Positions 19,625 through 41,132 of a stretch of 64,000 nt of DNA are shown piece after piece. Under the pieces are notes generated by a model. That model saw only the letters and a list, made by a program, of their open reading frames with translations. It did not search any database and was not told where the DNA came from. The stretch is taken from assembly GCA_042408215.1 (NCBI GenBank), contig JAYFMW010000003.1:475264-539263 (forward strand). Reading direction: 5' to 3'. The number at the start of each line of letters is the position of its first letter. Positions within the stretch are counted from its first letter, which is position 1. Position numbers and translations under genes: made by a program. The DNA comes from Microcoleus sp. GTDB lineage: Bacteria > Cyanobacteriota > Cyanobacteriia > Cyanobacteriales > Microcoleaceae.

Positions 19625-19855
19625 AATTTGGGAATGGGGAATTGGGCATCGGGCATCGGGCATTGGGCATTGGCCAAAGAGGGAATTGGTAATTGAAACC
19701 AACAAATAACCAATGACTAATGACTAATGATTAATAGACCTCTCCTAAAAAGATAGCGAAGAACAGGCATCCTGCCTGTTCCACAATAATTATGGGAGAT
19801 GTCTAATGACTACTGACTAATGACTACTGACTAATGACTACTGACTAATGACTTC

Positions 19856-21073: not shown

Positions 21074-21279
21074 AGTTTTTAGTCATTAGTCATTGGTCAT
21101 TAGTTATTAGTCAGTAATTATTAGTTATTGGTCATTAGTCATATCATGTCCGCGTCAATAAACGTAAATTATGTAAGGCGGTTTCACCCGTATCTATGCT
21201 TTAAATCCAGGATATTTGTAAACCCGCCCTGCCACAGCTAATGACTAATGACTAATGACTAATGACTAATGACTAATGA

Positions 21280-23148
21280 CTATTTCTGATTCTTGATAAT
21301 ATCCTCCAGCTTTTTACCTGGAGGAAGTTCGGTAAAAACCCGATCGCCCGCTTTTGCACCCTCTAAAATCTGAATCTTATTACCAATAGTCGAACCAATC
21401 GTAACTGGCTGAAACTTCGGCTGTTTTTTCTCATCGGGAATCAACACACCAGTTTGACCTTTATTAGTCACAATTGCCACAGTCGGCACAACTAAAGCAT
21501 TGCTCAACTTTTGACCAACAAATCTCAAATCTACGTTCATCCCCGACTGCAACAAATCTTTGCCCGTGTCAATGGCTACGCGCACTTGAAATAGCGTCAC
21601 ATCCCGTTCTTTAACTGCTTCTGGTGCAATCAATTTAACGCGACCTTTAAACACCTTATCTGGATAAGCATCAGCGACTATTTCAACTACTTGACCCGGT
21701 TTAATTTGACTGATATCCGCCTCCGGCACTTTCGCTAAAACTTCCACATCTCTTGCTAGAGCCACAATCGATGTTGAAGTTGCCGAAGTAGCATCCGATG
21801 CCGAAGTTGCCGGAGTCACAAAAGCTCCTTGAATAGCATACCTTTGGGTAATCACTCCAGCAAAGGGAGCGCGAATTTTAGTATCTTCTAGCTGCACTTC
21901 TTGATAGTGGACTTGAGCTTGGGCTTCGGCTAAGTCAGCTTTAGCTTGAGCTATTTCTTCCGGGCGAGAGCCATTTACTTGTACTGCTAATTGGCTTTTT
22001 GCTTCAGCAACTGCTGCTTCAGCTTTAGCTATTTCTTCTGGACGATTGCCGTTTTCTACTTGTGCTAATTTGCTTTTGGCTTCGGCAACTTCTGCTTCGC
22101 TTTTAGCAATTTCTTCCGATCGCGTCCCGTTCTGCAATTGCTTCAATCCTTGGCTCTCGACTTCAACAGCAGCTTGCAGTTGCTGGATTTGCGACAGCCG
22201 ATTTTCTTGCAGTTGTTGCAGACGTCTTTCGGATTCAGTTAATTTAGCTTGGGCAGTACGATTTTCTTTAATTAATTCATCCAGTTTATCTTGAGCCAGA
22301 GCACCTTCTTTTACTAATGACCGATTGCGTTCCACACGTTGAGCTGTGAGTTCGGCTTGGGCTTTACTCGATTCAATTTGGGTTTGTGCTTGGGCAATTT
22401 CTTGTTTTAAACTACCCGTTTGAGCATCTGCTAAACGAGCCTGAGCTTGGGCTAATCGAGCTCGCCCTTGGCTGACTTCTTCCACGCGGGTGCCGGCTCG
22501 CAGTTTTTGCAAGCCGGCTTGAGTTTGCTGCAAGCGGGATCTGGCTCCTGCGACTTCTTCAACGCGACTCCCGGCTTGGAGTTGGGCGAGACTGGCTTCG
22601 GCTTGATCTAAGCGCGCTTGAGCACTGGCGATGTCTTCCGATCGATTCCCGGCTTCGATTTTGGCAAGTTTGGCTCTAGCGCTAGCCTCGCGGGCTTTGG
22701 CTTGAGCGAGTTGGGCTTCTACGTCGCGACTTTCCATGCGAGCAATAATTTGTCCTGCTTGGACTTTATCGCCCTGTTCGACAAATAATTCTGCGATCCG
22801 CCCGGAGCCTTTGGGGCTGAGATTCACGCGCTGTACGGGCTGCACCGTGCCGCTAGATGTAATCCGCACGGTGAGGTTTTGCGATTCCACCGGGACAGTC
22901 ATGGTGGCGATCGCATCTACTTTCGGCTGCGATTTACTATTTACTATATATATGGTGGTCGGCACAGCTAGCAACCCGGCTGCAACCAGCCCAAGAGCCC
23001 ACCGATTCGGCTTCGGCGCGAGTTTCTTGGGGGACTGCTTTTGGGGGGTTTTGGCATCCGCAATCTGGGTATCTACGGTCTTGGTGTTTACAGCCTTAGT
23101 CTCTTCCACCTTGACCTGAGCTGCTTGCTTTTTGGGGCTAACGATCAT
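21280..23148 (-). CDS. Periplasmic adaptor / membrane fusion protein (HlyD/MacA family) with long coiled coil
   Basis: N-terminal TM, VNLSPKGSGRIAELFVEQGD lipoyl-like motif, repeated GxRxEE heptads, IRAPFAGVI; start uncertain (ATG 23148 chosen). Confidence 0.9.
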   Translation of the reverse strand: MIVSPKKQAAQVKVEETKAVNTKTVDTQIADAKTPQKQSPKKLAPKPNRWALGLVAAGLLAVPTTIYIVNSKSQPKVDAIATMTVPVESQNLTVRITSSGTVQPVQRVNLSPKGSGRIAELFVEQGDKVQAGQIIARMESRDVEAQLAQAKAREASARAKLAKIEAGNRSEDIASAQARLDQAEASLAQLQAGSRVEEVAGARSRLQQTQAGLQKLRAGTRVEEVSQGRARLAQAQARLADAQTGSLKQEIAQAQTQIESSKAQAELTAQRVERNRSLVKEGALAQDKLDELIKENRTAQAKLTESERRLQQLQENRLSQIQQLQAAVEVESQGLKQLQNGTRSEEIAKSEAEVAEAKSKLAQVENGNRPEEIAKAEAAVAEAKSQLAVQVNGSRPEEIAQAKADLAEAQAQVHYQEVQLEDTKIRAPFAGVITQRYAIQGAFVTPATSASDATSATSTSIVALARDVEVLAKVPEADISQIKPGQVVEIVADAYPDKVFKGRVKLIAPEAVKERDVTLFQVRVAIDTGKDLLQSGMNVDLRFVGQKLSNALVVPTVAIVTNKGQTGVLIPDEKKQPKFQPVTIGSTIGNKIQILEGAKAGDRVFTELPPGKKLEDIIKNQK

Positions 23149-23361
23149 AACCGACTCACCTAATTTAATCTCAGGATTACTTTTAAGGTAAAATTTTTGC
23201 TGATGCTTGGCATCGTCTTTGAGACTCATCCGATCGGGTGATTTTAAAAAAAGTTCCCCAACCAGCATCTATAAAGAATTATAGCTAATTTTTGCAACTT
23301 ATTAAAAAATGTTAAGTTTTCTCAGCTAAAAGAGCTGGGATCGAACAAGTGCGATCGACGA

Positions 23362-24196: not shown

Positions 24197-25213
24197 ATGA
24201 ATACACAACAAGCCACAGATTTAATTAACCAACCAATTCGAGTAGGCGTGCTCGGCTACGGCGGACTCGGCCAAGCCGCCGCCCGGTTACTCGCTCCCAA
24301 ACGCGAAATGCTCTGGGTAGCCGCCGCCGATCAAAAAGGTTACGCTTATGGCCCAGAAGGCTTAAATTCCCAGAAGTGTGAGGCAATTTACAAGTCTCAA
24401 GGTTCATTAGGTTATTTGGAATCAGCGGGAATTTTGAGCGATCGCAGTATTCAAGAACTCATCCAAACAGCCCAAGGAGTAGACGGCTATTTCCTAGCAT
24501 TACCAAATCTTCCCAACACATTCATGGCATCTGTAGCCAGACAATTTATCGAATCCGGCTGGAAAGGAGTATTAGTTGATGCCATCAAACGCACCAGCGC
24601 CGTCGAACAAATTCTCGCCATGAAATCCGAACTCCAAGCAGCAGGAATTACCTACATGACAGGCTGCGGTGCAACACCTGGGTTACTCACAGCAGCAGCA
24701 GCATTAGCCGCTCAAAGTTACGCAGAAGTGCACAGCGTTAAAATCACCTTTGGAGTCGGAATTGCCAATTGGGAAGCCTACCGAGCCACCATTCGCGAAG
24801 ACATCGCACATTTGCCCGGTTATGATGTACCGAAAGCTCAAGCCATGTCTGATGCAGAAGTGGAAGCGCTGTTAGATACCACCAACGGTTTATTGAAGCT
24901 GGAAAATATGGAACACGCCGATGATATCATGTTGGAATTGGCGGGAATTTGCGATCGCGATCGAGTCACAGTCGGCGGCATCGTCGATACCCGCAATGCC
25001 AAAAAACCCCTGAGCACGAACGTCCAAATTACCGGCCGCACCTTCGAGGGCAAAATCTCAACTCACACCTTTACTTTAGGCGACGAAACCAGCATGGCAG
25101 CGAACGTTTGTGGCCCAGCTTTCGGTTATCTGAAAGCAGGTATCATGCTGCAAAGAAAAGGCATTTCTGGCTTATTCACCGCCGCCGAAATCATGCCTCT
25201 ATTTGTCAGGTAA
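24197..25213 (+). CDS. bioU: (S)-8-amino-7-oxononanoate synthase BioU (NAD(P)-binding, biotin synthesis)
   Basis: GVLGYGGLG Rossmann motif, [19 protein letters not shown] and [10 protein letters not shown], as in cyanobacterial BioU. Confidence 0.82.
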
Positions 25214-25786
25214 TACCAATTTAATGGGTCGTTGCACAGATCTCGATCCCCCTAAATCCCCCTTAAGAAGGGGGACTTTGAGAAGAATCTTGTCCCACCC
25301 TTATTAAGGGGGGCTGGTAATACCAATTTAATGGGTCGTTGCACAGATCTCGATCCCCCTAAATCCCCCTTAAGAAGGGGGACTTTGAGAAGAATCTTGT
25401 CCCACCCTTATTAAGGGGGGCTGGTAATACCAATTTAATGGGTCGTTGCACAGATCTCGATCCCCCTAAATCCCCCTTAAGAAGGGGGACTTTGAGAAGA
25501 ATCTTGTCCCACCCTTATTAAGGGGGGCTGGTAATACCAATTTAATGGGTCGTTGCACAGATCTCGATCCCCCTAAATCCCCCTTAAGAAGGGGGACTTT
25601 GAGAAGAATCTTGTCCCACCCTTATTAAGGGGGGCTGGTAATACCAATTTAATGGGTCGTTGCACAGATCTCGATCCCCCTAAATCCCCCTTAAGAAGGG
25701 GGACTTTGAGAAGAATCTTGTCCCCCCCTTATTAAGGGGGGCTAGGGGGGATCAGATTCTATGCAGCCTCATAAAAAATTGGTATA
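25209..25786. repeat. Tandem array of five 107-bp units of an ATACCAATTT-ended MITE-like repeat (only the last copy complete)
   Basis: Units start at 25209, 25316, 25423, 25530 and 25637; single copies occur at 38457-38601 (inverted) and 62763-62907. Confidence 0.92.
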
Positions 25787-25808: not shown

Positions 25809-26080
25809 CGCACTCTAACCCAAGAAACCGGGTTTTTTGTGAGAATACTGGTTATAGCCTTTAATATCGGTAAAAACCCGGTTTCTGACCACCCCGCACT
25901 CTAACCCAAGAAACCGGGTTTTTTGTGAGAATACTGGTTATAGCCTTTAATATCGGTAAAAACCCGGTTTCTGACCACCCCGCACTCTAACCCAAGAAAC
26001 CGGGTTTTTTGTGAGAATACTGGTTATAGCCTTTAATATCGGTAAAAACCCGGTTTCTGACACCCCGCACTCTAACCCAA
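25809..26080. repeat. Tandem array of three 86-bp units containing AGAAACCGGGTTTT...AAAACCCGGTTTCT hairpins
   Basis: Units start at 25809, 25895 and 25981, with a partial unit at 26066. Confidence 0.9.
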
Positions 26081-26213: not shown

Positions 26214-26696
26214 ATGGCAGAAGTTGAAGTTCTTGTAGAGAGTTTGTGGGAACTTGATGAGGATCAGCTAGAAGCTCAGCTAGGCGATCGTGCACAAGCC
26301 ATAGGGGATGATGTTGCTGGACGTGGAGCAAAAGGGGTAGACCCAGCTTCCTTGGAATCTATTGATGTCAACGTTGCGGCTAGAGCATCCATCGATCCAA
26401 GATTGCTAGATGCTGGTCGCCAGCTTTTCGATCGCATAAACCCCTTAGCTTACGAACTTATGTGCAAACCCCTCGGTGGAGACAATGCAGAGACTCAGAA
26501 GATTTTAGATGAAACAATCAATCAGAACTATACCAAAGCGGCTGGGATGTTGGCTCCTGTTTTAGTCAGTGGACTTGGGTTAGCTCCTGTCCTTGCTACT
26601 CTTCTTGCAACTTTAATTATCAAAAAGATTGCAAATACGGGTGCTACAGCAATTTGCGAGACTTGGGAGAAAACTTTAGCAAAACCCGCAAGCTGA
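26214..26696 (+). CDS. Hypothetical 160-aa protein with acidic N-terminus and C-terminal hydrophobic hairpin
   Basis: GGAG upstream; AAGMLAPVLVSGLGLAPVLATLLATLII hydrophobic stretch; convergent with the caspase cluster. Confidence 0.8.
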   Translation: MAEVEVLVESLWELDEDQLEAQLGDRAQAIGDDVAGRGAKGVDPASLESIDVNVAARASIDPRLLDAGRQLFDRINPLAYELMCKPLGGDNAETQKILDETINQNYTKAAGMLAPVLVSGLGLAPVLATLLATLIIKKIANTGATAICETWEKTLAKPAS

Positions 26697-26720
26697 GTTA
26701 TTTACAAAGATTGGTAATAC

Positions 26721-26830
26721 AGTCCTGGACGCACTCCGACTCCTCGAAACCGGGTTTTTTACCAAATCTGCGCGCTGTAACGCATCTTCTCGCAAAAAAC
26801 CCGGTTTCTGACCACCCGTGCGTCTAGGAG
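26721..26830. mobile_element. MITE-like element with AGTCCTGGACGCA-type TIRs
   Basis: AGTCCTGGACGCAC...GTGCGTCTAGGA; the same ends flank 38305-38397. Confidence 0.6.
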
Positions 26831-27028
26831 TATCATAAAAACTCTGTGAGGCGATCGCACTTTTGTACTCATATCGTTTCTGGTTGTACCGGAATGATTT
26901 AACCGCAGAGAACACAGAGGACACAGAGGGAGAGAATAGAGATCTGAATAATTCCGATGCTACCGGATTTGATATCAGAGGTTTTGTCGGGCGATCGCAC
27001 TTATCTACCCATATTTGCTGCTACGGCG

Positions 27029-30000
27029 TTAAAAACTTTTATCTTTTCCAACTACTTTTGGCACATCGTCGCATAGGCGGCGATCGCTCTTACTAACATT
27101 GGGGTTATTCTGCAAATAGTCACGCACGCGATCGCAACCTTGTTCCAGTAGTTCATCGATTCCTCCTATCCGCCACAACTTAGCAGTGCCGTCCTTGCCA
27201 AGAGTAGCCATTAAGTTGCCATCAGCACTAAGACTTATATTAGTGACTTCGCCTTGATGTTGAGCTTTGAAAGTAGTCAATAATTTTCCTGACATATCCC
27301 ATACATGGATATCAGAGATAGCATCGCCGCCCACACCGATGTTCGCACTAGCTAATAAGTTACCCTGAGTATTAAGACCGATACTATTGAATGTGTTCCC
27401 AGCACCTTTAAACTTAACTAATTCCTTTCCTATCCCAGCCCCCAATTCACTTAAGAAGATATTGCCTCGATCTTGTGGGAACAAGTCGGTAGGTAGTGAA
27501 TTCGCCACTAACAGCCTGCCATCGGAGCTAAAACCAATAATACGCCTAGTTTCACCCAACTTATCGTTAGGACTTACCTTGTCGGGCAAGATTTCCCAGG
27601 TTTTATTATTCAAATTAAACAGATGGATAGTACCATCATTCTCCACGACAGCCAATTGCTTACCATCAGGACGAAAAATAAGCTGGCTAATTGTTTTTTC
27701 AAAATTTCGGGATTTATACAACTCCTTCCCATTCGTGTCCAACAGGCGAATCGTACTATCTTTACCAACTGCCGCCAATTGCTGACCATCAGGGCTAAAA
27801 ATGATTTGACTAATTTTGCCTTGAAAATCTACAAATCGCTTCAACTCATTAGCATTCAAATCCAACAGACGGACAGTGCCATCACTCTCTAAAACAGCTA
27901 GTTGCTTACCATCTGGACTGATGCTGATACTTATTAAGTTCGGAATTTTGCTTAACTCTACCACTGGCTTGTTCTCTATTTCCCACAAGCGAATGGTATG
28001 ATCGTTACCTCGACTCGCAACTTGTCTGCCATTAGAGCTAGAAATAACCTCACGAATACTACCTTGATGGCCTTTAAGTTCAAATTGCAATGCTTGAGAC
28101 AAACTTGATTTAATCGAAGAAGGATCATAAACATCAATAATACCATCACCCTCTTGACCGATAATCAGATGACTACTGGCATCAAAAATGATACTTGAAG
28201 CTCTGCTTATACGTGTAAAATCATTCCACGATTTATCATCTAAACTTCCAAAGTACGCACTACTCATGTCCGCTCCAAAGTCAGCTGCCAAGTGTTGACC
28301 ATCAGGGCTGAAAACGAGATTGCCAAATAATGTCAAGTGAAAATTTTTGAACTCCGCCAACTTCTTCCCCGACACAAAGTCTGACAAGCCGAGGGTATCG
28401 TTAGATTGGGTAGCTACAACTAGCTGGTTGTTGGAGTTAAAGCTAATACTACTGAAATTGTCTTGAGATTTTTTTAATAGCTTTGGTTCACTTTCCGATA
28501 AGTTCCACAGGTAGATAGTCATTGCATAACCCGTCTTAATTCCCCCATTTACATAGGCTACAAGCTGCTTACCATCAGGACTGAACCTGAGCCCACGGTC
28601 ATATACATGGGAATATGTAGACTGTGGAATAGAGGCTACAAACTTTGGTGGCTCTTCTTGTTTTCCTTCTGAGTTCCACAGGCGAACTGTCCCTTGCTCG
28701 TCAATGGTTGCTAATAAGCGACCATCCCGATCAACATCAAGTGTTACTTTACCTTTATGTCCTGAAAATACTTTGGATAGTTTTTGTCCATTCAAGTCTT
28801 GTAAGCGGACAATACCATCATTTCCTGCTGTAGCAATCAGTAACGTACCATCAGGCGTAAAAAACATCTTATTCAAGTCTTGAGGCACTTCTATGCGGTT
28901 ACGTTCTTTAGCTACATAGAATACCTTTCGCAAAGTTTGTAACACTTGAGGTTGAAGCTCAGTGTCTGGTTTTAAAAATGGTAGCTTACTTTCTGGCTTG
29001 AATAAGGATAAGTATCCAGGCCAATCTTTAAGATATTTCTGTGCTCGTAAGCTATCAAGCAACGCATTTAACTCTTGGTTGGGTAAGTTTGCTTCTGCGG
29101 ATAGTCTAGTAGCCCTGATTTGACCTATCAGTGCATTTCTCTCTCCAATCAAAGAAAATACTAAACCTGTACCTAACCCCAGCATTACGCCTAATGCAAT
29201 GCTCCAATTCCGACGAGTATTAAAGCTTTTTCGCCCGACACTGCGCCGCACAAACTCCGCTTCTAATTTGTTCAGCCAGTTGTCCTGGGAATTGAGCTCC
29301 TTTTTGAGCAAATCAAGACGTGGGTTAGCATTCCAGAGATATTCTGCCTGTTGCTGGCTTTCCCACTCTTCAGCGGCAGGTGTCAACCGCCGTTGCAAAA
29401 GTAAACTCTCTTCATTCTCCTGTTTCCACCTCAGCAGCTTTTCCCACCCCCGCACCAAAGCATCATGGGCCGGTTCCACATAGGGATTCCCCTCCGCATC
29501 TTGCCCTTTCACTAACAACCTGGCTGTGCTAAAATGCTCAATTACTTCTTTAACTAAACTATTTCGATCGGGCGGATATTCCAATTCCGATAACGGGACT
29601 TGTCTACGCGCTAACTCACCCCCACCCAGGGCTACCATCCGCAACATCACATCACGAATAACGTGGCTATAAGCTGGATTTTCTTGAACTAGCACCTGAT
29701 ATTCCTCATCAGCTCTTTGAGTCAGTGATAGGATTACTCCTCCCAAGTCTTGATAATCTTCTTGAGTCAGCGCCCGGTCAATTGTTATACCTTCGTTTCC
29801 TGCATCCCATTGTCGCTTTAAATACTTGAGATAAAGTTCGCTCAAAGCAAAAGACAGCAGGGGCAATGCTCCCGGCATATCCGCCACTTCATTAATTAAT
29901 TGTTCTACTAAATCGTGGGGTTGAAAATACATTACCCGTGTTTCTGCGGGTTTCTCAATCGCTTCCCTCAAATCCTTTCGTGTCATCGCGGGGACCATAA

Positions 30001-31471
30001 ATCGTCCGTTGAGCCAACGACCTTTAAGCACTGTATTTCCTACGTTATAGCCTGTGGGGATAAACTGTAAGCCAGCATCTCTAACTTGGGCTTCAAAGTC
30101 AGAACGTAGGCTTAACACTACCCGTAATTTATCCCGATGGGCGTTAATTGCTTTAAGTATTTGTTGGAAAAATTCCTTGCGCTCATCCTCATCTTGACAG
30201 AGTGTAATTATCTCTTCGCTTTGATCGATAAAGATTAATAACTGGGAATTGGGATGATTTTTAGCCAAAACCGCAATACTTTGACTCAGAGTTTTTTGTT
30301 TATTTTGTAATTCAATTTTGGGTAATTGGGCATCAACAAGGGCATTATTCAAGGCTTGAAAAGGTGTTTCTCCGGGGCGGATTGGTGATATAATACACCA
30401 TTTGTCGCTTTTTTCCTGTTTCAATTTAGGAATTAATCCGGCTTTTACCAAACTGGATTTACCTGAACCCGAAGCACCCAAAACCACTGTTAGAGGATTA
30501 GTTTTGACAATATTTTGTAACTTTTCTATTAGTTCGTTTCTACCGAAAAACAGTTTGTTGTGTTCCTCTTCAAACGGTAACAAGCCGCGATAGGGATTTT
30601 TGGAAACATCTAATGGTGGTGCTGGAGGTAGATTTAGCGCGTGTCCTGGTGTCAGGAAAATGTACTCGCCTTTATCGTGTTTTTTGAGGGAATGAATCCC
30701 TGGCGTCTGACGGATCGCACGAGCTTCTGTGGCAATTTCAATGCGATCGCGCAAATACACATAGAGATCGGTTGCCGTAATTACACCATCTCCCGCAGGC
30801 TTACCGGGTGCTGCTGGTGGAAAAGCATCGGCTTTACCCTCAAGTGCTTCTATCAACGCATAAGCAAAGGGTGAATGGCTTCCAATTTGTCCGCGATCGT
30901 CTTTCAGGTTAAAAGCATCCCATGCAGATTGATCGTGGGAAGCCGAAGTTAGAACTTGCCATGCTGGGTCTTGAATGAAGCGATCGTAGCGTTCTTTGTG
31001 GATCGTACCTAGTTCGATCGGAATCGCTTTGCGTAGACTTGACCAGCGAAAAGCACCCGCAAAACAACAGTCAAGAATACCTAAAAAGTGACGACAGGGA
31101 AGTTGAAGCAAGGCTTTATTCACCTCTGACATCGGCAGGTAAGTGCTAACATTGCCCAAGCGAGCACCTGGAGGAATCAGATAGCCTTCGGGGCCATCCT
31201 CGCCATTGAGAGCAATCCCATGTCCAGCATAGTAGAAAAGAAAGCGATCGCCCTTTTGAATTTGTTGTGGCAATTCTATCTCTAATACCTGCCGAAGTTG
31301 GCTGAGGTTAGCTGCTTGATTCAGCAGCAGAGTAACATCGTAATGATGCTCGGTTTCGAGGATACGAGCGATTTCTGTCGCATCACTGACAGCAGTTTTA
31401 AGTGAAGAAATACCGTTGTTGTAGTCGTCAATGCCAATGATTAGGGCGTAGCTGTGTTCAAAGTTTGACAT
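27029..31471 (-). CDS. Caspase-like peptidase C14 + STAND (nSTAND1-like) NTPase + TM + WD40 repeats
   Basis: ALIIGIDDY, FYYAGHG (His), ILDCCFAG (Cys); NPYRGL..F, FFGR, GASGSGKSSLVKAG Walker A, IDQSEE Walker B, LPLLSFALSELY, HDALVRGW; many FSPDG...IRLW repeats. Confidence 0.93.
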   Translation of the reverse strand: MSNFEHSYALIIGIDDYNNGISSLKTAVSDATEIARILETEHHYDVTLLLNQAANLSQLRQVLEIELPQQIQKGDRFLFYYAGHGIALNGEDGPEGYLIPPGARLGNVSTYLPMSEVNKALLQLPCRHFLGILDCCFAGAFRWSSLRKAIPIELGTIHKERYDRFIQDPAWQVLTSASHDQSAWDAFNLKDDRGQIGSHSPFAYALIEALEGKADAFPPAAPGKPAGDGVITATDLYVYLRDRIEIATEARAIRQTPGIHSLKKHDKGEYIFLTPGHALNLPPAPPLDVSKNPYRGLLPFEEEHNKLFFGRNELIEKLQNIVKTNPLTVVLGASGSGKSSLVKAGLIPKLKQEKSDKWCIISPIRPGETPFQALNNALVDAQLPKIELQNKQKTLSQSIAVLAKNHPNSQLLIFIDQSEEIITLCQDEDERKEFFQQILKAINAHRDKLRVVLSLRSDFEAQVRDAGLQFIPTGYNVGNTVLKGRWLNGRFMVPAMTRKDLREAIEKPAETRVMYFQPHDLVEQLINEVADMPGALPLLSFALSELYLKYLKRQWDAGNEGITIDRALTQEDYQDLGGVILSLTQRADEEYQVLVQENPAYSHVIRDVMLRMVALGGGELARRQVPLSELEYPPDRNSLVKEVIEHFSTARLLVKGQDAEGNPYVEPAHDALVRGWEKLLRWKQENEESLLLQRRLTPAAEEWESQQQAEYLWNANPRLDLLKKELNSQDNWLNKLEAEFVRRSVGRKSFNTRRNWSIALGVMLGLGTGLVFSLIGERNALIGQIRATRLSAEANLPNQELNALLDSLRAQKYLKDWPGYLSLFKPESKLPFLKPDTELQPQVLQTLRKVFYVAKERNRIEVPQDLNKMFFTPDGTLLIATAGNDGIVRLQDLNGQKLSKVFSGHKGKVTLDVDRDGRLLATIDEQGTVRLWNSEGKQEEPPKFVASIPQSTYSHVYDRGLRFSPDGKQLVAYVNGGIKTGYAMTIYLWNLSESEPKLLKKSQDNFSSISFNSNNQLVVATQSNDTLGLSDFVSGKKLAEFKNFHLTLFGNLVFSPDGQHLAADFGADMSSAYFGSLDDKSWNDFTRISRASSIIFDASSHLIIGQEGDGIIDVYDPSSIKSSLSQALQFELKGHQGSIREVISSSNGRQVASRGNDHTIRLWEIENKPVVELSKIPNLISISISPDGKQLAVLESDGTVRLLDLNANELKRFVDFQGKISQIIFSPDGQQLAAVGKDSTIRLLDTNGKELYKSRNFEKTISQLIFRPDGKQLAVVENDGTIHLFNLNNKTWEILPDKVSPNDKLGETRRIIGFSSDGRLLVANSLPTDLFPQDRGNIFLSELGAGIGKELVKFKGAGNTFNSIGLNTQGNLLASANIGVGGDAISDIHVWDMSGKLLTTFKAQHQGEVTNISLSADGNLMATLGKDGTAKLWRIGGIDELLEQGCDRVRDYLQNNPNVSKSDRRLCDDVPKVVGKDKSF

Positions 31472-31520
31472 ATAGCGAGCCTAAAAAATTTGTAAGAGTT
31501 TGTAGGGGTAGGCCCCCGTG

Positions 31521-32123
31521 CATTGGTTGGTGTCAACAAACAGGTTAAATGCACTCACAGACTGCTGTTTAACCGTTAGATCTAGATCCCCCCTAGCCCC
31601 CCTTAAGAAGGGGGGGACTGGAAGTGGTCAAAGTCAACCCCTACTCCCCTTTTTCAGGGGGCGGAAGTGGTCAAAGTCAACCCCTACTCCCCTTTTTCAG
31701 GGGGCGGAAGTGGTCAAAGTCAACCCCTACTCCCCTTTTTCAGGGGGCGGAAGTGGTCAAAGTCAACCCCTACTCCCCTTTTTCAGGGGGCGGAAGTGGT
31801 CAAAGTCAACCCCTACTCCCCTTTTTCAGGGGGCGGAAGTGGTCAAAGTCAACCCCTACTCCCCTTTTTCAGGGGGCGGAAGTGGTCAAAGTCAACCCCT
31901 ACTCCCCTTTTTCAGGGGGCGGAAGTGGTCAAAGTCAACCCCTACTCCCCTTTTTCAGGGGGCGGAAGTGGTCAAAGTCAACCCCTACTCCCCTTTTTCA
32001 GGGGGGGACTGGAAGTGGTCAAAGTCAACCCCTACTCCCCTTTTTCAGGGGGATTTAGGGGGATCTCGACTCGGCTATAAGCGAGATTTATCAAAGTTTT
32101 TAGGCTGGTTGTTGACACCAATG
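31521..32123. mobile_element. CATTGG(T)GTCAAC-TIR MITE-like element with an internal 43-bp tandem expansion (10 units), inside a GTAG palindrome
   Basis: 9-bp duplication GCCCCCGTG at 31512-31520 and 32124-32132; unit GGAAGTGGTCAAAGTCAACCCCTACTCCCCTTTTTCAGGGGGC repeated over ~31620-32050. Confidence 0.85.
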
Positions 32124-32187
32124 GCCCCCGTGCCTACCCTGTATCCTCTGGGGCGATCGCAGGTGAATAGCCCCATTGACAAAACAC

Positions 32188-34320
32188 CTATCGCGTGAGT
32201 GTGATTTTAATCTCCTTCGTTGTCCACTCCTGACTCGGATCGAAAATTGCTGTTGCACGATAACCCGGAATTTCTGGTTGAGTATCAACATCAGCACCAA
32301 CCGCAGCCAGAAGTTGTCCAAGTGGATTCTCACCACGGGGTAGTGTTGCTGATTTTTGGTCGATTTCTTGATCGAGTGAGGGCAACTCCAGCCAACGAAA
32401 ATCATTCGGTTTGACCGTCGCAAAAACTTTCAAAGTTTCGGCGCCTTTGGAAGATTTTCCATGATCCGGGAGCTTGATTTGAAGCGGAATTAACATTTCT
32501 TGATTGGGATCGAATGGATAAAAAATCCCCTCTGGTATTTGGAGTTGAATGCGGGAAACCGCCCAGTTTGATTCGAGATCCAGCACAGCAACATTCAAAA
32601 CTTGAGAGTAAGTATTTTTAATTCGCAAGAATGCGTACTCACCAGATTTAACAACTAAATTAGTCGGGTCGGGAAATGGCTGCGGTTTTTTAGGCATCCC
32701 TGGTTGCCAGTTTGGTTGTGTGAGTAATTCCACCTCTAGCTTGTTGGTCAAATCAGAAAATTGATTGCTCAACTGTTGAATCGCCTGATATTTTACTAAA
32801 TGTACCAATCGTTTCACTACTTTTTGTGGAGCATCAGAATCCTCAATCTTTAACGCAGGTGTGAGGTTTTCGATCGGTGTACCAATGCAAATCTCATACT
32901 CCCCTTTTTGATTAACCGCAACTTGATAATCTTCCTTTTGTTGTGCATCCACCAGTTTCAACCAGCCATTTCCTGCCAGTGCTGCCTCGACTGCCTTCAA
33001 TGCAGCATCTTCCTGCTCCTTAATAGCTTGATTCAGTTGATTGTCTTTCTCACCAACCTCTTTTTTGAAAAGGCGTACTCCCCGTACCAAATCAACAGGG
33101 GCTGATAGCATCACTGCTTGAGAACCTTGATCAATCTTGTCCTGACGTAGCACTTCAATTACATCTGCCCAGGCATCAGAAGCACCAACTTTTGTAATCT
33201 CAACGATCGCCACTTGCTGGTTTTTCTGGGTAAAATCTGTCGTGCCAAACCCATAGATTGCGAAGCGATAACCTGGACTGAGACCGTTTTCCATCCCTGC
33301 ATCCAGCCGGACTTGTTTGGGGATTTTCTTCGGTTCTGAGCCTGCCTCAGTGACTTCTTCCTCAATTACTTCAAGCACATTCACAGCATATTGTAAAGAT
33401 CCGCGCTCAACTCCGAAGACAAAGCGATCGCTCTCGCCCACCAGCATTGGCATCTGCTGAGGGAACTTGCTTTGAATTTTCGCACTGATGCGATCGTGCA
33501 ATGTTTTGTACGTCAATCCTGAAGGGCTACTGGTTAAGGTATCAATCATCCAGTACGTCAGCGCCCCATGTCGCTCCTTACCACTCACCGTATACTCTAA
33601 GGCATACTCGCTAGGACGACAAGCAGCTAGCAATACATAATCTTTAGATTGAGGCAGCCAGTGCCCAGGGGTAATACTTGCAGCCGTTTCATCAGTCAGA
33701 GTCTGCCAGTTTTCGATCAGCTCTTGTCGCGAAGCCACCAAGCTTTCCGAGTCTCGGGGTGCTGTGTCGATTTCTCCAATTCCTCGAATTGCAACATCGT
33801 CGCCACGAGTTGCTTCTCCAGAGTGACAGCTATCCATAATAACTGTGACAATCAACCCTTTGTCCGTCATCCGCTTCAACAGTGTCGCCAATTCCACATC
33901 GCGCAGGTAGCGCCCTCCTTCATTGCCAACATCCATTGGTACAATACCTTCATCAGGTTGGTCATTCCCCTTCAGTTCTGGATAGATGGTTGTCATCCGT
34001 CCTCCATGTCCAGAATAGTGAATGTAAACCTGCTCTCCTGGTTGAGCTATTTCTGTAATGGCATGAAACTGCGCCACAATGTTTTCATAAGTGGGTTCTG
34101 GGTATTTGGTTGCGATCGTTTCAGCGACTTCAGGATTCGGAGAAGTCAGCTTGAAAATCTTTTCAGAAGGAATCTTCAGTGTCTCTAAGAGGTAGCTTGC
34201 TACAAGATTGATGTCACCAAAGCATCCTTTAAGATTCTTGTACAACCGATTCGGCTGATAGCCGTCAATGCCAATTAATAAAGCGTAAATGTTCGGTGTT
34301 TGTTCAGATTTGTCAGTCAT
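32188..34320 (-). CDS. Caspase-family (peptidase C14) protease with long C-terminal region
   Basis: IYALLIGIDGY, LKGCFGD, HYSGHG (His), IMDSCHSG (Cys), LLAACRPSEYA, HGALTY; likely start ATG 34320. Confidence 0.92.
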   Translation of the reverse strand: MTDKSEQTPNIYALLIGIDGYQPNRLYKNLKGCFGDINLVASYLLETLKIPSEKIFKLTSPNPEVAETIATKYPEPTYENIVAQFHAITEIAQPGEQVYIHYSGHGGRMTTIYPELKGNDQPDEGIVPMDVGNEGGRYLRDVELATLLKRMTDKGLIVTVIMDSCHSGEATRGDDVAIRGIGEIDTAPRDSESLVASRQELIENWQTLTDETAASITPGHWLPQSKDYVLLAACRPSEYALEYTVSGKERHGALTYWMIDTLTSSPSGLTYKTLHDRISAKIQSKFPQQMPMLVGESDRFVFGVERGSLQYAVNVLEVIEEEVTEAGSEPKKIPKQVRLDAGMENGLSPGYRFAIYGFGTTDFTQKNQQVAIVEITKVGASDAWADVIEVLRQDKIDQGSQAVMLSAPVDLVRGVRLFKKEVGEKDNQLNQAIKEQEDAALKAVEAALAGNGWLKLVDAQQKEDYQVAVNQKGEYEICIGTPIENLTPALKIEDSDAPQKVVKRLVHLVKYQAIQQLSNQFSDLTNKLEVELLTQPNWQPGMPKKPQPFPDPTNLVVKSGEYAFLRIKNTYSQVLNVAVLDLESNWAVSRIQLQIPEGIFYPFDPNQEMLIPLQIKLPDHGKSSKGAETLKVFATVKPNDFRWLELPSLDQEIDQKSATLPRGENPLGQLLAAVGADVDTQPEIPGYRATAIFDPSQEWTTKEIKITLTR

Positions 34321-34372
34321 TTTTAATTCATTGCTCCAGTGTCTTTTATCGGGTAGGGACACTCCAAAAGCC

Positions 34373-34814
34373 CATAGGTGTCAACTTAAGGTCAAACCCA
34401 GTCAGAGACTGTTGTTTGACTATTAAATCTAGATCCCCCCGCATTCTTGCCCCCTACTCAACCCCTACTCCCCTTAAGAAGGGGGGGACAAGAGTCTTCT
34501 CAAAGTCCCCCTTCTTAAGGGGGATTTAGGGGGATCTAGACTTAGGTAAAAACCAGATTTCTCAGGGCTTTCAGGCTTAAGTTGACACCAATGGGCAGTG
34601 CCCATTAGTGTCAACTTAAGCTCAAACCTAGTCACAGATTGCTGTTTGACTATTAAATCTAGATCCCCCCGCATTCTTGCCCCCTACTCCCCCTTAAGAA
34701 GGGGGGGATAAGAGTCCGATCAAAGTCCCCCTTCTTAAGGGGGATTTAGGGGGATCTAGACTTCGCCTAAAAGCGACATTTATTATGGGTTTTAGGCTTA
34801 AGTTGACACCAATG
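34373..34814. mobile_element. Two tandem copies of the CATTGGTGTCAACTTAA-TIR MITE inside a GTAGGGACAC...GTGTCCCTAC palindrome
   Basis: Copy 1 at 34373-34593, 9-bp spacer GGCAGTGCC, copy 2 at 34603-34814. Confidence 0.82.
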
Positions 34815-34853
34815 GGTCCGGCGCCGTGTCCCTACAGATCGATCGCGAATACA

Positions 34854-35756
34854 TCAAGCCATTTGTGCGCGGGTTTTGACAGCGACAATTCCGTCTGGCT
34901 TCAACCCCTTTTTCTGCTGAAATTCCTTGACGGCTTTATCTGTTGCCGGCCCAAATTCACCATCAGCCCCAACTGCAACGCCAGCCTTTTTCAAGCCTTC
35001 CTGAAGCTTGAGGACATCCGAGCCTTCCATTCTGGGCATCGCTAAGCGCAACGTTCTGGGTTTGTTATCCCACGGCGCTTTAGGAAACCCTGGAGCCGGA
35101 GAGCGATTAAGTGCACCCTCGGTTTGCGGGCCAAAGCCGCCATCCTCGCTAATCTTTGCATTAGGATTGTTCTGATTCCAAAGCTGCTGAAATGCGAGTA
35201 TTGATGTACTGCGAAGATCGATCGTGCCCCCGCCTTGGTAGTCGAAGTGAGGTGGATCGTTCGGTAATGGATTCCAGCCATACCGCATTAAATAAGGTTC
35301 CCAGCCTAGGGCATCTTCAATGTCGATCGCTAACCCAGTTTGGTGGTTGCTGGTTCCTGGTGCAGCTACAGGATTAGAGTTGTTGAAGCGATCGTTATAC
35401 AGCAACATTTGTTGGGCGATCGTGCGGTAAGCAGAGTTCACCTGCATCGTTTGACCTCGATCTTGAATCGCTCTCTGGAGTGCCTGTTTTGCAGGGGCTT
35501 GTACATAGGGAAAGGCTGCATCCAGCAAGTCTACATTCAGGTCATCAAAACTGACAAAAGCATCTGGCATCATCAGTTGCATTTGATAAATTAACTGCTG
35601 GGATAAGCCATTGACCACCGCAGTCGAAGACATGGGTGCATCTCGGAGCAATCCGGGGAAACTGCCTTTAATTTCCAACATATCCCGTTGGACAAATTCT
35701 GCACAGGCTTCGACAATTACAGGTTGATTAAATAGAATATCGCTTGAGTCAGTCAT
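34854..35756 (-). CDS. M15-like zinc peptidase (peptidoglycan hydrolase) with C-terminal peptidoglycan-binding domains
   Basis: VNSAYRTIAQQ, SNHQTGLAID (H-x6-D), DPPH; PG_binding_1-like DGEFGPATDKAVKEFQQKKGLKPDGIV. Confidence 0.85.
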   Translation of the reverse strand: MTDSSDILFNQPVIVEACAEFVQRDMLEIKGSFPGLLRDAPMSSTAVVNGLSQQLIYQMQLMMPDAFVSFDDLNVDLLDAAFPYVQAPAKQALQRAIQDRGQTMQVNSAYRTIAQQMLLYNDRFNNSNPVAAPGTSNHQTGLAIDIEDALGWEPYLMRYGWNPLPNDPPHFDYQGGGTIDLRSTSILAFQQLWNQNNPNAKISEDGGFGPQTEGALNRSPAPGFPKAPWDNKPRTLRLAMPRMEGSDVLKLQEGLKKAGVAVGADGEFGPATDKAVKEFQQKKGLKPDGIVAVKTRAQMA

Positions 35757-35895
35757 GGTTTTCTCCAATTAGTTTGAATTTGGTCATTCCTGGATTCACA
35801 AACTCTATCTCTAGGGCGATGCACACCGCACCTTACCCCCACAGATCTTGTAACAATTGCTTGATTGCGTAATTTAAATTGTTACAAAATCGATT

Positions 35896-36801
35896 TTATA
35901 GTCCCAATTTTTTGAGAGTTTGGGCCCCGACAACACCATCCGCCGTTAGCCCTTTTTGCTTTTGAAAAAGCCGCACAGCACTATCGGTGTCTTTGCCAAA
36001 GAATCCATCTGGTTCGATATTGATTCCTGCTGTTTTCAAAGCTTCTTGTACTTGACGAACATCCTCACCTTGCATCATGGGTTCGGTGAGTTTCAAAGTG
36101 CGAGGTGCTTCTGAGATTGTTTCACCTGTTACTTCTTTGCCTGTTCCTTCATAGGTTAAGAATGACTGCCAGGGTTTTCCCAAAAACAGTGCTCGTTCAG
36201 CCAATCGTCGGCGTGTCAGCCCTAGCCAGGGTTGACCATTTACCTTATTCCACACAGGAAACTGATTGGCTGCTCCTTGATAATCTCCGTTGTTCAACAG
36301 CTTCAGAAGAGTTGAACCTCCAAAACCTTTTCTTCCTGGGCCGACGTTGAAGCAGAAACAAACCAGTGCAGAAAACTGATTGTCATTGAGCTGAAATTCA
36401 ACCGCATCCTCAACATAGGATTCAAATTTTTCTAAATCTCCGCTCAGCAATTCTTCTGCTTGCGTTTGGCTAATGGTCATTCCTGGAAACACATCATTAC
36501 CAGTGTGTCCGTAACCAATTGTCAAAACTCCACCGCCATCATCATAGGCAGTTAGTACACATCCTTCAAAGGTAGTTAGAAGCTTGAAACCTGCTTGATT
36601 GATGTGTCTTGAACCTCTGCGTCCTGCTACATCAGGCGGTTGTTTGTCTGGAGGAGCAATGTTGTATGTTTTAGCCACGCTGAACCGTAAAGCATCAATT
36701 AATGTCTCTATGTCTCCATTAGTTTCGGTAACTTTAACGGCTTGGTCGTTCTCAATTTCGTAGACGCGGCCATCGCCGAAGAGTTCAACTGATCTTGGCA
36801 T
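35896..36801 (-). CDS. GH24 (phage-type) lysozyme with N-terminal extension and C-terminal peptidoglycan-binding domain
   Basis: FEGCVLTAYDDGGGVLTIGYGHT (E-x8-D-x5-T), QFSALVCFCFNVG, GLTRRRLAE; DGFFGKDTDSAVRLFQKQKGLTADGVVG; likely start ATG 36801. Confidence 0.9.
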   Translation of the reverse strand: MPRSVELFGDGRVYEIENDQAVKVTETNGDIETLIDALRFSVAKTYNIAPPDKQPPDVAGRRGSRHINQAGFKLLTTFEGCVLTAYDDGGGVLTIGYGHTGNDVFPGMTISQTQAEELLSGDLEKFESYVEDAVEFQLNDNQFSALVCFCFNVGPGRKGFGGSTLLKLLNNGDYQGAANQFPVWNKVNGQPWLGLTRRRLAERALFLGKPWQSFLTYEGTGKEVTGETISEAPRTLKLTEPMMQGEDVRQVQEALKTAGINIEPDGFFGKDTDSAVRLFQKQKGLTADGVVGAQTLKKLGL

Positions 36802-37103
36802 TTTAGTGTATCCTTTTTGGGAGGTAGATTCGGTCAAAAAAAGCATCCTGAGTATCTCGATGGTGCGTGCGGAGCGTCGCACTGCCCTTCGACGGACGTT
36901 TATGCTGACCGCGTAGTCGAAGTGCTCAGGAACCGCGTCAGCCGAAGGTGTCGACACCGCCATCGAAAGTCTTTCTCTGACGAGTGCTTTTGCTGATTAC
37001 GTCTATTCCGGTATTCCAGAGTAAGTTCCGGAATGTTCGCGAATCTTTACAAAAATTCATCCGCCAAGGCGATCGGCTTACCTAATCTCTCGGCTTCGCG
37101 CAA

Positions 37104-38610: not shown

Positions 38611-39738
38611 TTACATCTTTTGAAACACTGCGAACATCGGCAGATACATAGACAGCAAAATCGAACCTACGATACCACCTACCACCACAATCATCAGTGG
38701 CTCTAGCATACTCGTGAGTCCTTTTACAGCCTCTTCCACCTCAGTTTCGTAGAAAGCGCCAACTTTCACCAGCATCTTGTCAAGTTCCCCAGTTTCTTCG
38801 CCAATTGCGATCATTTGAATTGCCAAAGAAGGGAAAACTTTCTGTTCTTGCAAAGCAATACTGATCATGCCGCCGCCTTGAATTTCATTCCTTGCATATT
38901 CGATCGCATTTGAGATGGCCTGATTCCCGGCCACATCTCGCACAATTTCCAAAGAGTTGAGAATCGGCACTCCCGATCGCGTCAGGGACCCAAATATCAC
39001 ACAAAATCGAGCCACAGCCGATTTTTCCAGCAAATCTCCAAAAATCGGCGCCTTCATCATCATCCTATCAACTTGCAGGTGACCTACTGGAGTTTTGTAG
39101 TACATCCCGAATCCAATATTTAGCGCTATAATCACCCCAATAGTTGTCACCTGTTGGATGGGAGGCCAAGCCACACAAAATGCACTAATTGCCAACATAA
39201 ACACCGTAAAAGCCGGCAAATCTGCACCAATATCCTTAAAAATTTTCGCAAAAGTTGGTAGCAGAAATATCGTCATTGCGAAAAAAATCACGATCGCGAT
39301 CGAAAACACAGTCTTCGGATAAGACATCGCCGAATTAATTTCAGCCGACGTCTTATGATTTTTTTCCATCATTACCGCCAGACGGTCTAGGGATTCATCT
39401 AGCACACCCCCGACTTCTCCCGCTGCCACCATACTGATAAACAGTTGGTCAAAAACATCAGGAAACTTCGCCATCGATTCTGCCAAGTTGATCCCCTCTT
39501 GTACGTCAGCATTCATGCTCCTGATCGCTCGTTTCAACTTAGGATTAGAACACTGTTCCTGCAACACAGAAAGACATCTAACGATGGCAACCCCTGCATT
39601 AAACATCGCCGAAAACTGACGAGCAAAAATCGCTAAATCTTTAATGGTAACACTGCTAAAATTGTACTCTATTTCCTCCTGAATTTTCTCAAGACTAAAG
39701 CTGCCTTTAGACTTTTGACCGATCGCATTAGTAGCCAT
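38611..39738 (-). CDS. pilC: Type IV pilus inner-membrane platform protein (GspF family)
   Basis: KDLAIFARQFSAM, AGEVGGVLD, IGEETGELDKML; follows pilT. Confidence 0.95.
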   Translation of the reverse strand: MATNAIGQKSKGSFSLEKIQEEIEYNFSSVTIKDLAIFARQFSAMFNAGVAIVRCLSVLQEQCSNPKLKRAIRSMNADVQEGINLAESMAKFPDVFDQLFISMVAAGEVGGVLDESLDRLAVMMEKNHKTSAEINSAMSYPKTVFSIAIVIFFAMTIFLLPTFAKIFKDIGADLPAFTVFMLAISAFCVAWPPIQQVTTIGVIIALNIGFGMYYKTPVGHLQVDRMMMKAPIFGDLLEKSAVARFCVIFGSLTRSGVPILNSLEIVRDVAGNQAISNAIEYARNEIQGGGMISIALQEQKVFPSLAIQMIAIGEETGELDKMLVKVGAFYETEVEEAVKGLTSMLEPLMIVVVGGIVGSILLSMYLPMFAVFQKM

Positions 39739-39917
39739 ATATTGCCTCTAGAAAATTATGTTGTTTTAGGTGTTATTAGTTATTAGTTATTAGTGACTTT
39801 TTGGTGGTTTGTTCGTAGTTTTTAGCTCTGGGTTTTTGGGAGATTGTTACTAATAACTAATAACCGACAACCAAGAACGAATAACCAATAACCAATAACC
39901 AATAACTAATGACTGAA

Positions 39918-41012
39918 TTAATGACCCCCTGTCTTGGTGCCAGCGGGTGCCGGGCCGATCAAGCGTTCGAGTTCATCTGGCTTAGATGCCTTGGCCATTC
40001 CCGATTCCCAAGTGATTTTACCAGCCTTGTAAAGATCAGATAAAGCCATTTCCATTGTCCTCATGCCCAACTTCGCCCCCATTTGGATTTGGGAGTAAAT
40101 CATTGGAGTTTTCCCCTCCCGGATCAAGTTAGACATAGCAGGAGTATTCAGCATAATTTCCATAGCACAGCAACGGCCGCCGCCAACTTTCACCACCAAA
40201 TTTTGGCTGGCTATTCCCACCAAAGAGTTAGACACCTGGGCGCGAACCTGGGGTTGTTGAATGGGCGGGAACACGTCCAAAATCCGATCGATCGTTGCAG
40301 CCGCAGAATTAGTGTGCAGCGTTCCCATTACCATGTGACCCGTTTCCGCCGCCGAAATTGCCAGACCGATGGTTTCCAAGTCGCGCATTTCCCCCACCAG
40401 AATCACGTCAGGATCTTCCCGCAGAGCAGCCTTCAGCGCATTAGAAAAGCTCTTAGTATCTTCGCCCTTTTGACGCTGGTGAAACAAACTCTTAACATTG
40501 GGAAACACATATTCGATCGGGTCTTCAACTGTCAGAATGTGTTCCGCCCGCGTCCGGTTGACCAGATCCAACAAAGCCGCCATCGTGGTAGTTTTCCCGG
40601 AACCCGTTTGTCCCGTCACCAACAGCATACCTCTGGGTCTTTCCGTCAGATCCCGCAAAATCTGCGGCACGCCTAAAGCATCTGCGTTCGGAATCTTAGA
40701 AGCCAGAGCCCGCATACAAGCAGCCCAAGTACCCCGTTCCCGGTAAACGTTCACCCGGAACCGAGCCAACCCCTTCACCCCGTAAGCGCAGTCGAGTTCC
40801 CACTCCATCTCCAATTGCTTGCGCTGCATATTGTTGAGCATTTGGAAAATCAGGATCTGCACCTCCTCGGAAGACAGGATTTCGCCGAATTGTGGCTGAG
40901 GAGTGAGTTTACCGCTAATTCGGAAGAAAATAGACGCGCCCGCTTGGATGTGTATGTCTGAACCCCCTTTCTCTACCAGACACTCCAGTACGTCTTCAAT
41001 CATCAGACCCAT
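39918..41012 (-). CDS. pilT: Type IV pilus retraction ATPase
   Basis: GQTGSGKTTT, TVEDPIE, ALREDPDVILVGEMRD, GTLHTNSA, SNLIREGK. Confidence 0.96.
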   Translation of the reverse strand: MGLMIEDVLECLVEKGGSDIHIQAGASIFFRISGKLTPQPQFGEILSSEEVQILIFQMLNNMQRKQLEMEWELDCAYGVKGLARFRVNVYRERGTWAACMRALASKIPNADALGVPQILRDLTERPRGMLLVTGQTGSGKTTTMAALLDLVNRTRAEHILTVEDPIEYVFPNVKSLFHQRQKGEDTKSFSNALKAALREDPDVILVGEMRDLETIGLAISAAETGHMVMGTLHTNSAAATIDRILDVFPPIQQPQVRAQVSNSLVGIASQNLVVKVGGGRCCAMEIMLNTPAMSNLIREGKTPMIYSQIQMGAKLGMRTMEMALSDLYKAGKITWESGMAKASKPDELERLIGPAPAGTKTGGH

Positions 41013-41132
41013 AGATATTTCTCCCTAATCAAGTTGATAGTTGATAGTTATTGATCAATTTAACCCAGTTAACAGTTAACAGTTGACAATTAACGGTTAA
41101 CTGTTAACCCTTGACTGTTTTTTGCTGCTGAA

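Follow-up and report, generated by a model that had tools for sequence, protein, structure and literature searches.

A Microcoleus locus pairing caspases with peptidoglycan hydrolases and a small hydrophobic protein that carry putative basic cleavage sites

A stretch of 64,000 nucleotides of a Microcoleus sp. genome (GenBank assembly GCA_042408215.1, contig JAYFMW010000003.1, positions 475,264 to 539,263; hereafter the window, placed on contig C3 of the 7.36-Mb genome) holds five genes that may form a caspase-triggered lysis cassette. On the plus strand lies the gene of a small protein of 160 amino acids (aa), here called s160, and four minus-strand genes, for a GH24 lysozyme, an M15/VanY peptidase, a C14 protease of 724 aa and a C14-nSTAND1-WD40 protein of 1480 aa, converge on it (Table 1). 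Judging from alignments of relatives, the conserved feature is a single basic residue, mostly followed by Gly, Ala or Ser, that closes an N-terminal segment. We give an even chance to the proposal that the C14 proteases cut the lysozyme, the M15 peptidase and s160 after this Arg or Lys, freeing them to lyse the cell.

Results

The preliminary description of this DNA had read a D-V-A-x-R-(R)-G motif, shared by s160, the 724-aa caspase and the lysozyme, as a predicted caspase cleavage site. The three peptides were found again at the positions given for them and are the sole DVAxR matches in the six frames of the window. Across the genome, the pattern DVA.RR?G occurs in four of 5,282 mechanically called open reading frames (ORFs), about two being expected, and three of these four lie in this locus, where 0.003 would be expected, a figure that overstates the enrichment because the pattern was drawn from the same three peptides. 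Orthologs do not conserve the wording, which is kept in 75 of 120 close relatives of s160, in 1 of 113 distant ones, in 24 of 68 close lysozymes and in 5 of 41 distinct caspase loops. This poor retention rules out the exact motif as a recognition sequence, and on the same comparison the D-V-A part is a lineage accident. The idea that the motif marks processing sites fared better: basic-residue sites common to the caspase and its neighbours draw support from their conservation and position, from the controls, from gene fusions and from a published case of R↓G cleavage (the arrow marks a predicted or published bond), and what proved wrong is the definition through D-V-A.

The residue ahead of the predicted bond (P1) is basic in 17/17 s160, 17/17 GH24 and 15/15 M15 representatives under 75% identity, counted in slots whose anchors were placed on downstream motifs; the script chose an adjacent basic residue in one s160 and two M15 rows, in which the slot is basic either way. 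In the genome background, R or K followed by G, A or S occurs in 7-19% of random slots of equal width.

The lysozyme matches PF00959 with 152 bits, and its T4-type Glu-x8-Asp-x5-Thr residues (E79, D88 and T94) are invariant in 34 sequences. Its start had been placed at 36963, but the Met of M-P-R-S-V-E at 36801, kept in 68/69 aligned proteins, is more likely. A structure model (predicted local distance difference test, pLDDT, 85; predicted template modelling score, pTM, 0.60) has a folded N-domain (residues 3-48), an open, unstructured loop (49-68) and a catalytic domain (63-209), and compares with structure 7m5i at Z 21.0 and a root mean square deviation of 2.0 over 148 aligned residues; a fold search with it returned matches to the catalytic and peptidoglycan (PG)-binding parts only and none to the N-domain. 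In the unstructured loop sits Arg62, the sole invariant linker residue, which is Arg in 17/17 representatives (<75% identity) with all six Arg codons in use, while no position of the flanks from P10 to P4' is common to more than 8 of the 17.

An Arg stands 3-8 residues before the core Ile in 41/41 distinct N-domain lysozymes (15/15 when dereplicated) versus 5/37 other GH24 proteins, and a C14 gene lies within 8 kb of 28/41 and 1/37 of them, respectively, many loci being truncated by contig ends. The controls belong to the same order and have an N-terminal extension of at least 20 residues; they derive from a pool of 30 loci and 40 regions hand-picked among the 150 matches listed, and rows with fewer upstream residues were excluded before the 37 were counted. 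Free GH24 proteins start 2-8 residues before the core Ile in 24/25 cases, and residue 1 of P22 lysozyme superposes on residue 64 of the model; since these natural starts and the superposition coincide there, the enzyme left by cleavage behind Arg62 would be close to a natural one. Three genomes of a single genus carry this N-domain on Amidase_2, without a linker Arg and without a caspase in the vicinity; its role may therefore be that of an adaptor and not of an inhibitor.

The M15 peptidase combines an acidic N-segment of 30 residues with a PG-binding domain as in the lysozyme. It had been described as lacking the motif; the view that it has no site was rejected on the conserved Lys30 slot (I-K↓G-S-F), basic in 15/15 divergent representatives and in 28/28 distinct segments. 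Signal peptides, as predicted from sequence, are absent from both the lysozyme and the M15 peptidase.

In s160, whose nearest relatives by small-protein comparison are Microcoleus records, an acidic N-segment (residues 1-57, net charge -10) precedes a hydrophobic hairpin near residues 109-136, with a hydropathy of 2.16 at 118-136; a hydrophobic stretch of Kyte-Doolittle hydropathy 1.8-2.3, together with an acidic N-segment, is found in 24/24 family members. Arg37, the basic residue of the flagged peptide, did not hold as the cut site: it is Arg in just 88/120 close relatives and lies inside an insertion, mostly Microcoleus-type, that is a gap in 119/125 rows of the distant-member alignment. 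On conservation it was ruled out and Arg57 preferred, which is Arg or Lys in 120/120 close relatives and basic in 15/15 representatives under 75% identity, down to 33% identity, with slot variants VPR↓GG, TPR↓GF, LTR↓AN, ASR↓GV and ETR↓AP. The GDDVAGRG region is a possible accessory site; Lys40-Gly41 is basic in 113/120 close relatives.

The s160 family comprises 491 clusters at 50% identity, with near-invariant Gly68, Cys84, Cys148 and Trp151. No Pfam family is common to more than 5 of 113 members, no EACC1 match appeared among either 24 or 113 members searched, an ESM Atlas search with s160 returned unnamed clusters only, and comparison with solved structures gave no relative below E 0.067. 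The PDC-M35B models of PADLOC match 89/113 members (best E 8.6e-13), and s160 of the window weakly (E 0.01). Across the wide family (125 rows), the residue after the site is Gly in 79/125 and the residue before it is Met in 32, Leu in 28, Arg in 15, Phe in 9 and Ala in 7; Gly is found in the cut-site stretch of 86/113 members versus 32 in the stretch upstream. The s160 domain is fused to C14 caspases (P0285, P0317, P0370), to CHAT proteases (P0302, P0341) and to a lysozyme-like protein (P0250), and the one non-cyanobacterial s160 gene with a visible neighbourhood encodes Met↓Gly and lies downstream of a CHAT protease. Searches for further non-cyanobacterial context in plasmids, phages and metagenomes came back empty, and a search of 381 genomes from another phylum gave one match. 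On thin evidence, these sequences fit a cut site at which P1 changes with the partner protease, since the context searches gave little and the idea draws on a single locus, five gene fusions and the pairing in PADLOC. In the large proteins P0250, P0251 and P0340, two or three s160-type repeats accompany a lysozyme-like domain and Glu-Ser pairs recur in the linkers; they are possibly a sister system with another protease specificity.

Both caspases match PF00656 above its cut-off and have intact dyads (His119/Cys179 in the 724-aa and His84/Cys136 in the 1480-aa protein), and H105, C165, R172 and R179 (numbering of caspase alignment A5) are invariant in that alignment. The top match of the 724-aa protease is the PADLOC 'caspase' model (E 1.9e-41); NF047832 scores of 65.5 and 18.1 bits are below the cut-off of 140. 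Aligned to yeast metacaspase, the 724-aa protein shows the acidic S1 signature (the Asp of G-C-x-x-D and the Asp before the catalytic Cys), and acidic S1 residues are present in 40/41 distinct relatives; the roles given to these positions are drawn in part from PMC5756287. It also has the pocket Cys that has been linked to activity in C14 enzymes (PMC5756287; here and below, statements on published work refer to the accessible passages of each source). As it adds these acidic S1 residues and this Cys to an intact dyad, the 724-aa enzyme is the likelier cutter. In its post-catalytic loop, the first Arg is kept in 40/41 and hydrophobic-R-(G/S) in 37/41 distinct loops. The 1480-aa protein has a single predicted membrane helix at 758-776, with the WD40 part beyond it, and sequence-based prediction gave no signal peptide for either caspase.

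The genes are linked in related loci. In a sample of 401 genomes, 28 had s160, 34 the lysozyme N-domain and 26 both; among the eight with the N-domain only, four had a 724-type caspase in the locus, two were amidase fusions, one, next to a STAND-WD40 gene, was cut off by the end of its contig and one had no caspase. A C14 gene is near s160 in 29/37 loci of at least 12 kb, and a CHAT protease adjoins it in two of the other eight. R↓G is also found directly before the catalytic domain of other cargo, namely an astacin (L036, D-V-S-S-R↓G), C39 peptidases (L069, L103 and L117, A-V-P-R↓G and A-A-R↓G) and an M74 peptidase (L071, G-S-R↓G). Gene order and orientation vary among these loci, and one further hit, L042, was a chance match and was discarded.

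Table 1. Features of the locus and of related N-domain fusions. Positions are those of the window, or of the related locus where a locus handle (L) is given
Feature	Position	Strand	Basis or remark
s160, 160-aa small helical protein, predicted membrane effector	26214..26696	+	hydropathy, family search
GDDVAGRG in s160	26304..26327	+	peptide search; possible accessory site
Arg57 codon of s160, V-A-A-R↓A-S, predicted P1	26382..26384	+	conservation
1480-aa C14 caspase - nSTAND1 NTPase - membrane helix - WD40 propellers, predicted sensor-protease	27029..31471	-	
724-aa ORF, C14 metacaspase-like protease	32188..34362	-	probable start 34320
GDDVAIRG in 724-aa caspase	33781-33804	-	peptide search
Post-catalytic loop A-T-R186-G-D-D-V-A-I-R193-G, predicted self-processing sites	33784..33807	-	conservation
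M15/VanY Zn peptidase with PG-binding domain	34854..35756	-	domain search
Lys30 codon of M15, L-E-I-K↓G-S-F, predicted P1	35667..35669	-	conservation
301-aa GH24 lysozyme with PG-binding domain	35896..36801	-	domain search, structure model
PPDVAGRRG in lysozyme	36613-36639	-	peptide search
Arg62 codon of lysozyme, second Arg of R-R↓G-S, predicted P1	36616..36618	-	conservation, structure comparison
N-domain-Amidase_2 fusions	L124:9347-10042, L125:9872-10573, L126:61-570		N-domain unnamed and mobile, carried by wall hydrolases

Three near-perfect tandem arrays lie on the flanks of the locus genes (107 nucleotides x 5 at 25209-25743, 86 nucleotides x 3.2 at 25809-26080 and 43 nucleotides x 10 at 31620-32052), and palindromic repeats related to them lie at about 34370-34830. 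Further out, the flanks at 18404-23268 and 38611-43142 hold genes that resemble a DevB/ABC exporter set and pilC-pilT-pilB. The right-hand junction and the left-hand neighbours differ between relatives, which argues that the locus is mobile. The lysozyme and M15 genes are covered by contigs from RNA runs of relatives, of which one spans 34727-36981; with 3/14 RNA runs and no silent control, these contigs cannot show transcription.

Other cargo was seen in related loci. Alpha/beta hydrolases of the LCAT/PGAP1 type, 480-500 aa long and with basic-small pairs near the start of the C-terminal domain, occur in caspase loci (L113:2603-4051, L114:6609-8117, L119:3317-4798 and L132:12381-13817). At L068:10270-12342, a CHAT protease adjoining s160 has an N-segment that contains V-P-E-R↓G-A-S and, without a Pfam name, resembles a fused small effector. 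In a second version of the Microcoleus locus (L014 to L030), a subtilase of 775 aa that bears SLH domains lies upstream of the lysozyme, some 3 kb from s160; several genomes carry both versions. In L071:10481-14808, a lanthipeptide synthetase (DUF4135 and LANC), accompanied by Nif11-like leader genes, is directly upstream of a broken s160 and the caspases.

Discussion

The locus works like published protease-effector modules, yet it is none of the four families tested, not EACC1 and not PDC-M35 proper. A parallel is also offered by phage holin-endolysin cassettes, in which, as here, a signal-less GH24 muramidase with a PG-binding domain goes with a small hydrophobic protein; unlike those, the Microcoleus locus has N-segments ending in a basic site and a predicted proteolytic control, and no phage genes were recognised among the neighbours examined, nor did one s160 relative find a match in a phage collection. 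The s160 family shares with the PADLOC system PDC-M35 its matches to PDC-M35B, whereas the partner is here a C14 caspase, P1 is Arg or Lys and there is no adjacent PDC-M35A gene; four weak PDC-M35A matches occur in the genome, none of them on contig C3. What PDC-M35A matches are trypsin-like sequences elsewhere in the genome, the family being recognised by a motif. The accessible main text of 10.1101/2024.01.29.577857 does not mention PDC-M35.

Closest at hand for comparison are the modules of Evans et al. (2025, 10.1101/2025.11.14.688446), in which the LcCaspase of Lysobacter cuts its alpha/beta hydrolase at R↓G in two places and EACC1, once cleaved, makes liposomes leak. Shared with them are a C14-type protease joined to STAND/WD40 sensors by fusion or pairing, an adjacent latent effector, a conserved Arg followed by Gly, a conserved P1 in an exposed linker (here predicted), a small effector whose N-terminal segment is followed by a C-terminal part of membrane type and, in some related loci, the LCAT/PGAP1 alpha/beta hydrolase. 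The differences are that the GH24, M15 and PDC-M35B-like effectors fall outside the ten families surveyed there, that no MBL, alpha/beta hydrolase, Pepco or EACC1 effector is among the neighbours in the window, that there are several effectors per protease set, and that P1' is Gly, Ala or Ser and not Gly alone. Unlike the two-gene EACC1-caspase system (Kaur et al. 2020), this locus gave no EACC1 match and remains below the NF047832 cut-off. In bacterial gasdermin systems, too, a protease, which may be fused to WD40/NACHT sensors, removes an inhibitory segment at X↓Gly in an exposed loop and frees a membrane effector, as in the Runella gasdermin cut at Leu↓Gly (10.1101/2021.06.07.447441); here, however, there is no gasdermin, the segment removed would be N-terminal and wall hydrolases are included. 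Arg or Lys is preferred by non-animal C14 enzymes, and MaOC1 needs self-processing for activity (PMC5756287); MaOC1, PCaspase and the caspase of type IV Thoeris, which cuts promiscuously after Arg (10.1101/2024.10.24.620036), are likewise Arg-specific bacterial C14 enzymes with small residues preferred around the bond. Those enzymes are promiscuous or have no known substrate, while dedicated substrates are predicted here from conserved sites.

If the locus does act as a lysis cassette, the STAND-WD40 protein would sense a trigger and activate its own caspase, and the 724-aa caspase would mature itself at Arg186/Arg193. The matured caspase could then cut s160 at Arg57, M15 at Lys30 and the lysozyme at Arg62, all of them basic-small sites. 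The C-terminal hairpin of s160 might permeabilise the inner membrane, like cleaved EACC1, so that the trimmed hydrolases would cross it and digest peptidoglycan from within, a holin-endolysin logic under caspase control. Its role would be the sacrificial death of single cells in the filament, abortive defence against phages being likelier than the formation of necridia in development. A broader version, about which we lean towards doubt, is that a STAND-WD40 sensor in the membrane switches on a metacaspase, which recognises a single basic-small code on interchangeable pro-hydrolases (GH24, M15, C39, M74, astacin) and on the pore- or holin-like s160 family, the cut residue switching with the protease class (Arg for C14; Met/Leu for CHAT or trypsin).

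Several observations weigh against a caspase-triggered lysis cassette. The 41 N-domain lysozymes form one clade, and therefore Fisher p-values for their contrast with the 37 controls overstate independence. In two lysozyme loci (L115 and L117) the Arg is kept with no caspase within the available flanking DNA, and P1' is not always small, since Thr, Gln, Pro, Asp and Leu occur. Co-variation of Arg and Lys between substrates came out divided: it is suggestive in two sibling comparisons (R/R versus K/K in L106 versus L108, and in L102 and L120 versus L101 and L132), but the choice of Arg or Lys is discordant in the window (Arg in s160, Lys in M15) and in L005, L007, L008, L020 and L033. As to s160, it is on the strand opposite to the hydrolases, and its absence from 8/34 N-domain genomes means that a holin-like partner is not always there; its two near-invariant Cys may indicate an oxidising, exported setting, and a model built from 12 sequences was unreliable (pLDDT 42.6) and was not used in the fold search. 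Finally, related Arg-specific caspases can be promiscuous executioners without a dedicated substrate (10.1101/2024.10.24.620036).

The same cuts could serve another purpose, if the caspases matured exported hydrolases and a bacteriocin-like small protein, aimed at competing bacteria or at remodelling of the wall of the filament itself, the acidic N-segments then being pro- or export leaders. Related cargo typical of secreted enzymes (astacin, C39, M74, the subtilase with SLH, M23), the PG-binding domains, the s160 cysteines and a sensor whose WD40 part lies beyond the predicted membrane helix would suit such export; we nevertheless hold it to be unlikely, given that the lysozyme, the M15 peptidase and both caspases are without signal peptides, that no secretion machinery was recognised among the neighbours examined, and that STAND sensors, CHAT proteases, the alpha/beta hydrolase and the PDC-M35B link suggest immunity. 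It is also conceivable, and in our estimate slightly less likely still, that the sites are cut and the N-segments are adaptors or tethers and not inhibitors, cutting serving to release, relocate or destroy the proteins, safety inactivation included. The folded lysozyme N-domain on amidases that have neither caspase nor Arg speaks for this, as does a pTM at which the position of that domain over the active site is not established; on the other side, the cut would yield nearly exactly the natural free lysozyme, and cleavage activates in the modules for which it was tested (10.1101/2025.11.14.688446).

Quite improbable, to our mind, is that there is no dedicated cleavage, the basic residues being kept structurally or by descent and the genes merely sharing a variable defence island. 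Each family is one clade, basic-small pairs have an appreciable background per slot (given above), the six-letter motif proved accidental, and gene order and orientation vary, all of which such an account would accommodate. It sits less well with four unrelated families, plus the astacin, C39 and M74 cargo, that have the site at a domain border, with an Arg kept through six codons despite variable flanks and linker length, with controls that are without the site and with direct caspase-s160 fusions. Between these accounts and the caspase-triggered lysis cassette, three candidate substrates with exact bonds are at hand, and therefore the question reduces to a simple in vitro test.

A literature search, which left subscription journals mostly outside, found no report of caspase-activated lysozymes, and the accessible passages of PMC8195603, PMC7159879 and 10.1101/2024.01.29.577857 do not describe this locus. 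Kaur et al. (2020, PMC7159879), in the passages available, mention lysozyme, and wall peptidases of the papain-like kind, solely as effectors linked to EAD1 in a trypsin-NucA system, and MaOC1 is the single biochemically studied cyanobacterial enzyme named in PMC5756287 (2017). The link of cyanobacterial caspase homologues to programmed death is mostly correlative. Should the proposed cleavage be true, s160, the M15 peptidase and the lysozyme would be the first dedicated substrates for cyanobacterial orthocaspases, and peptidoglycan hydrolases together with an uncharacterised family of 491 clusters would join the protease-activated death effectors. In crust and mat formers of the Microcoleus type, filaments break at necridia, which destroy themselves (PMC13594678), and in these organisms the locus would be a candidate for the machinery by which single cells of a trichome are sacrificed, a lysis logic like that of phages turned to host immunity or development.

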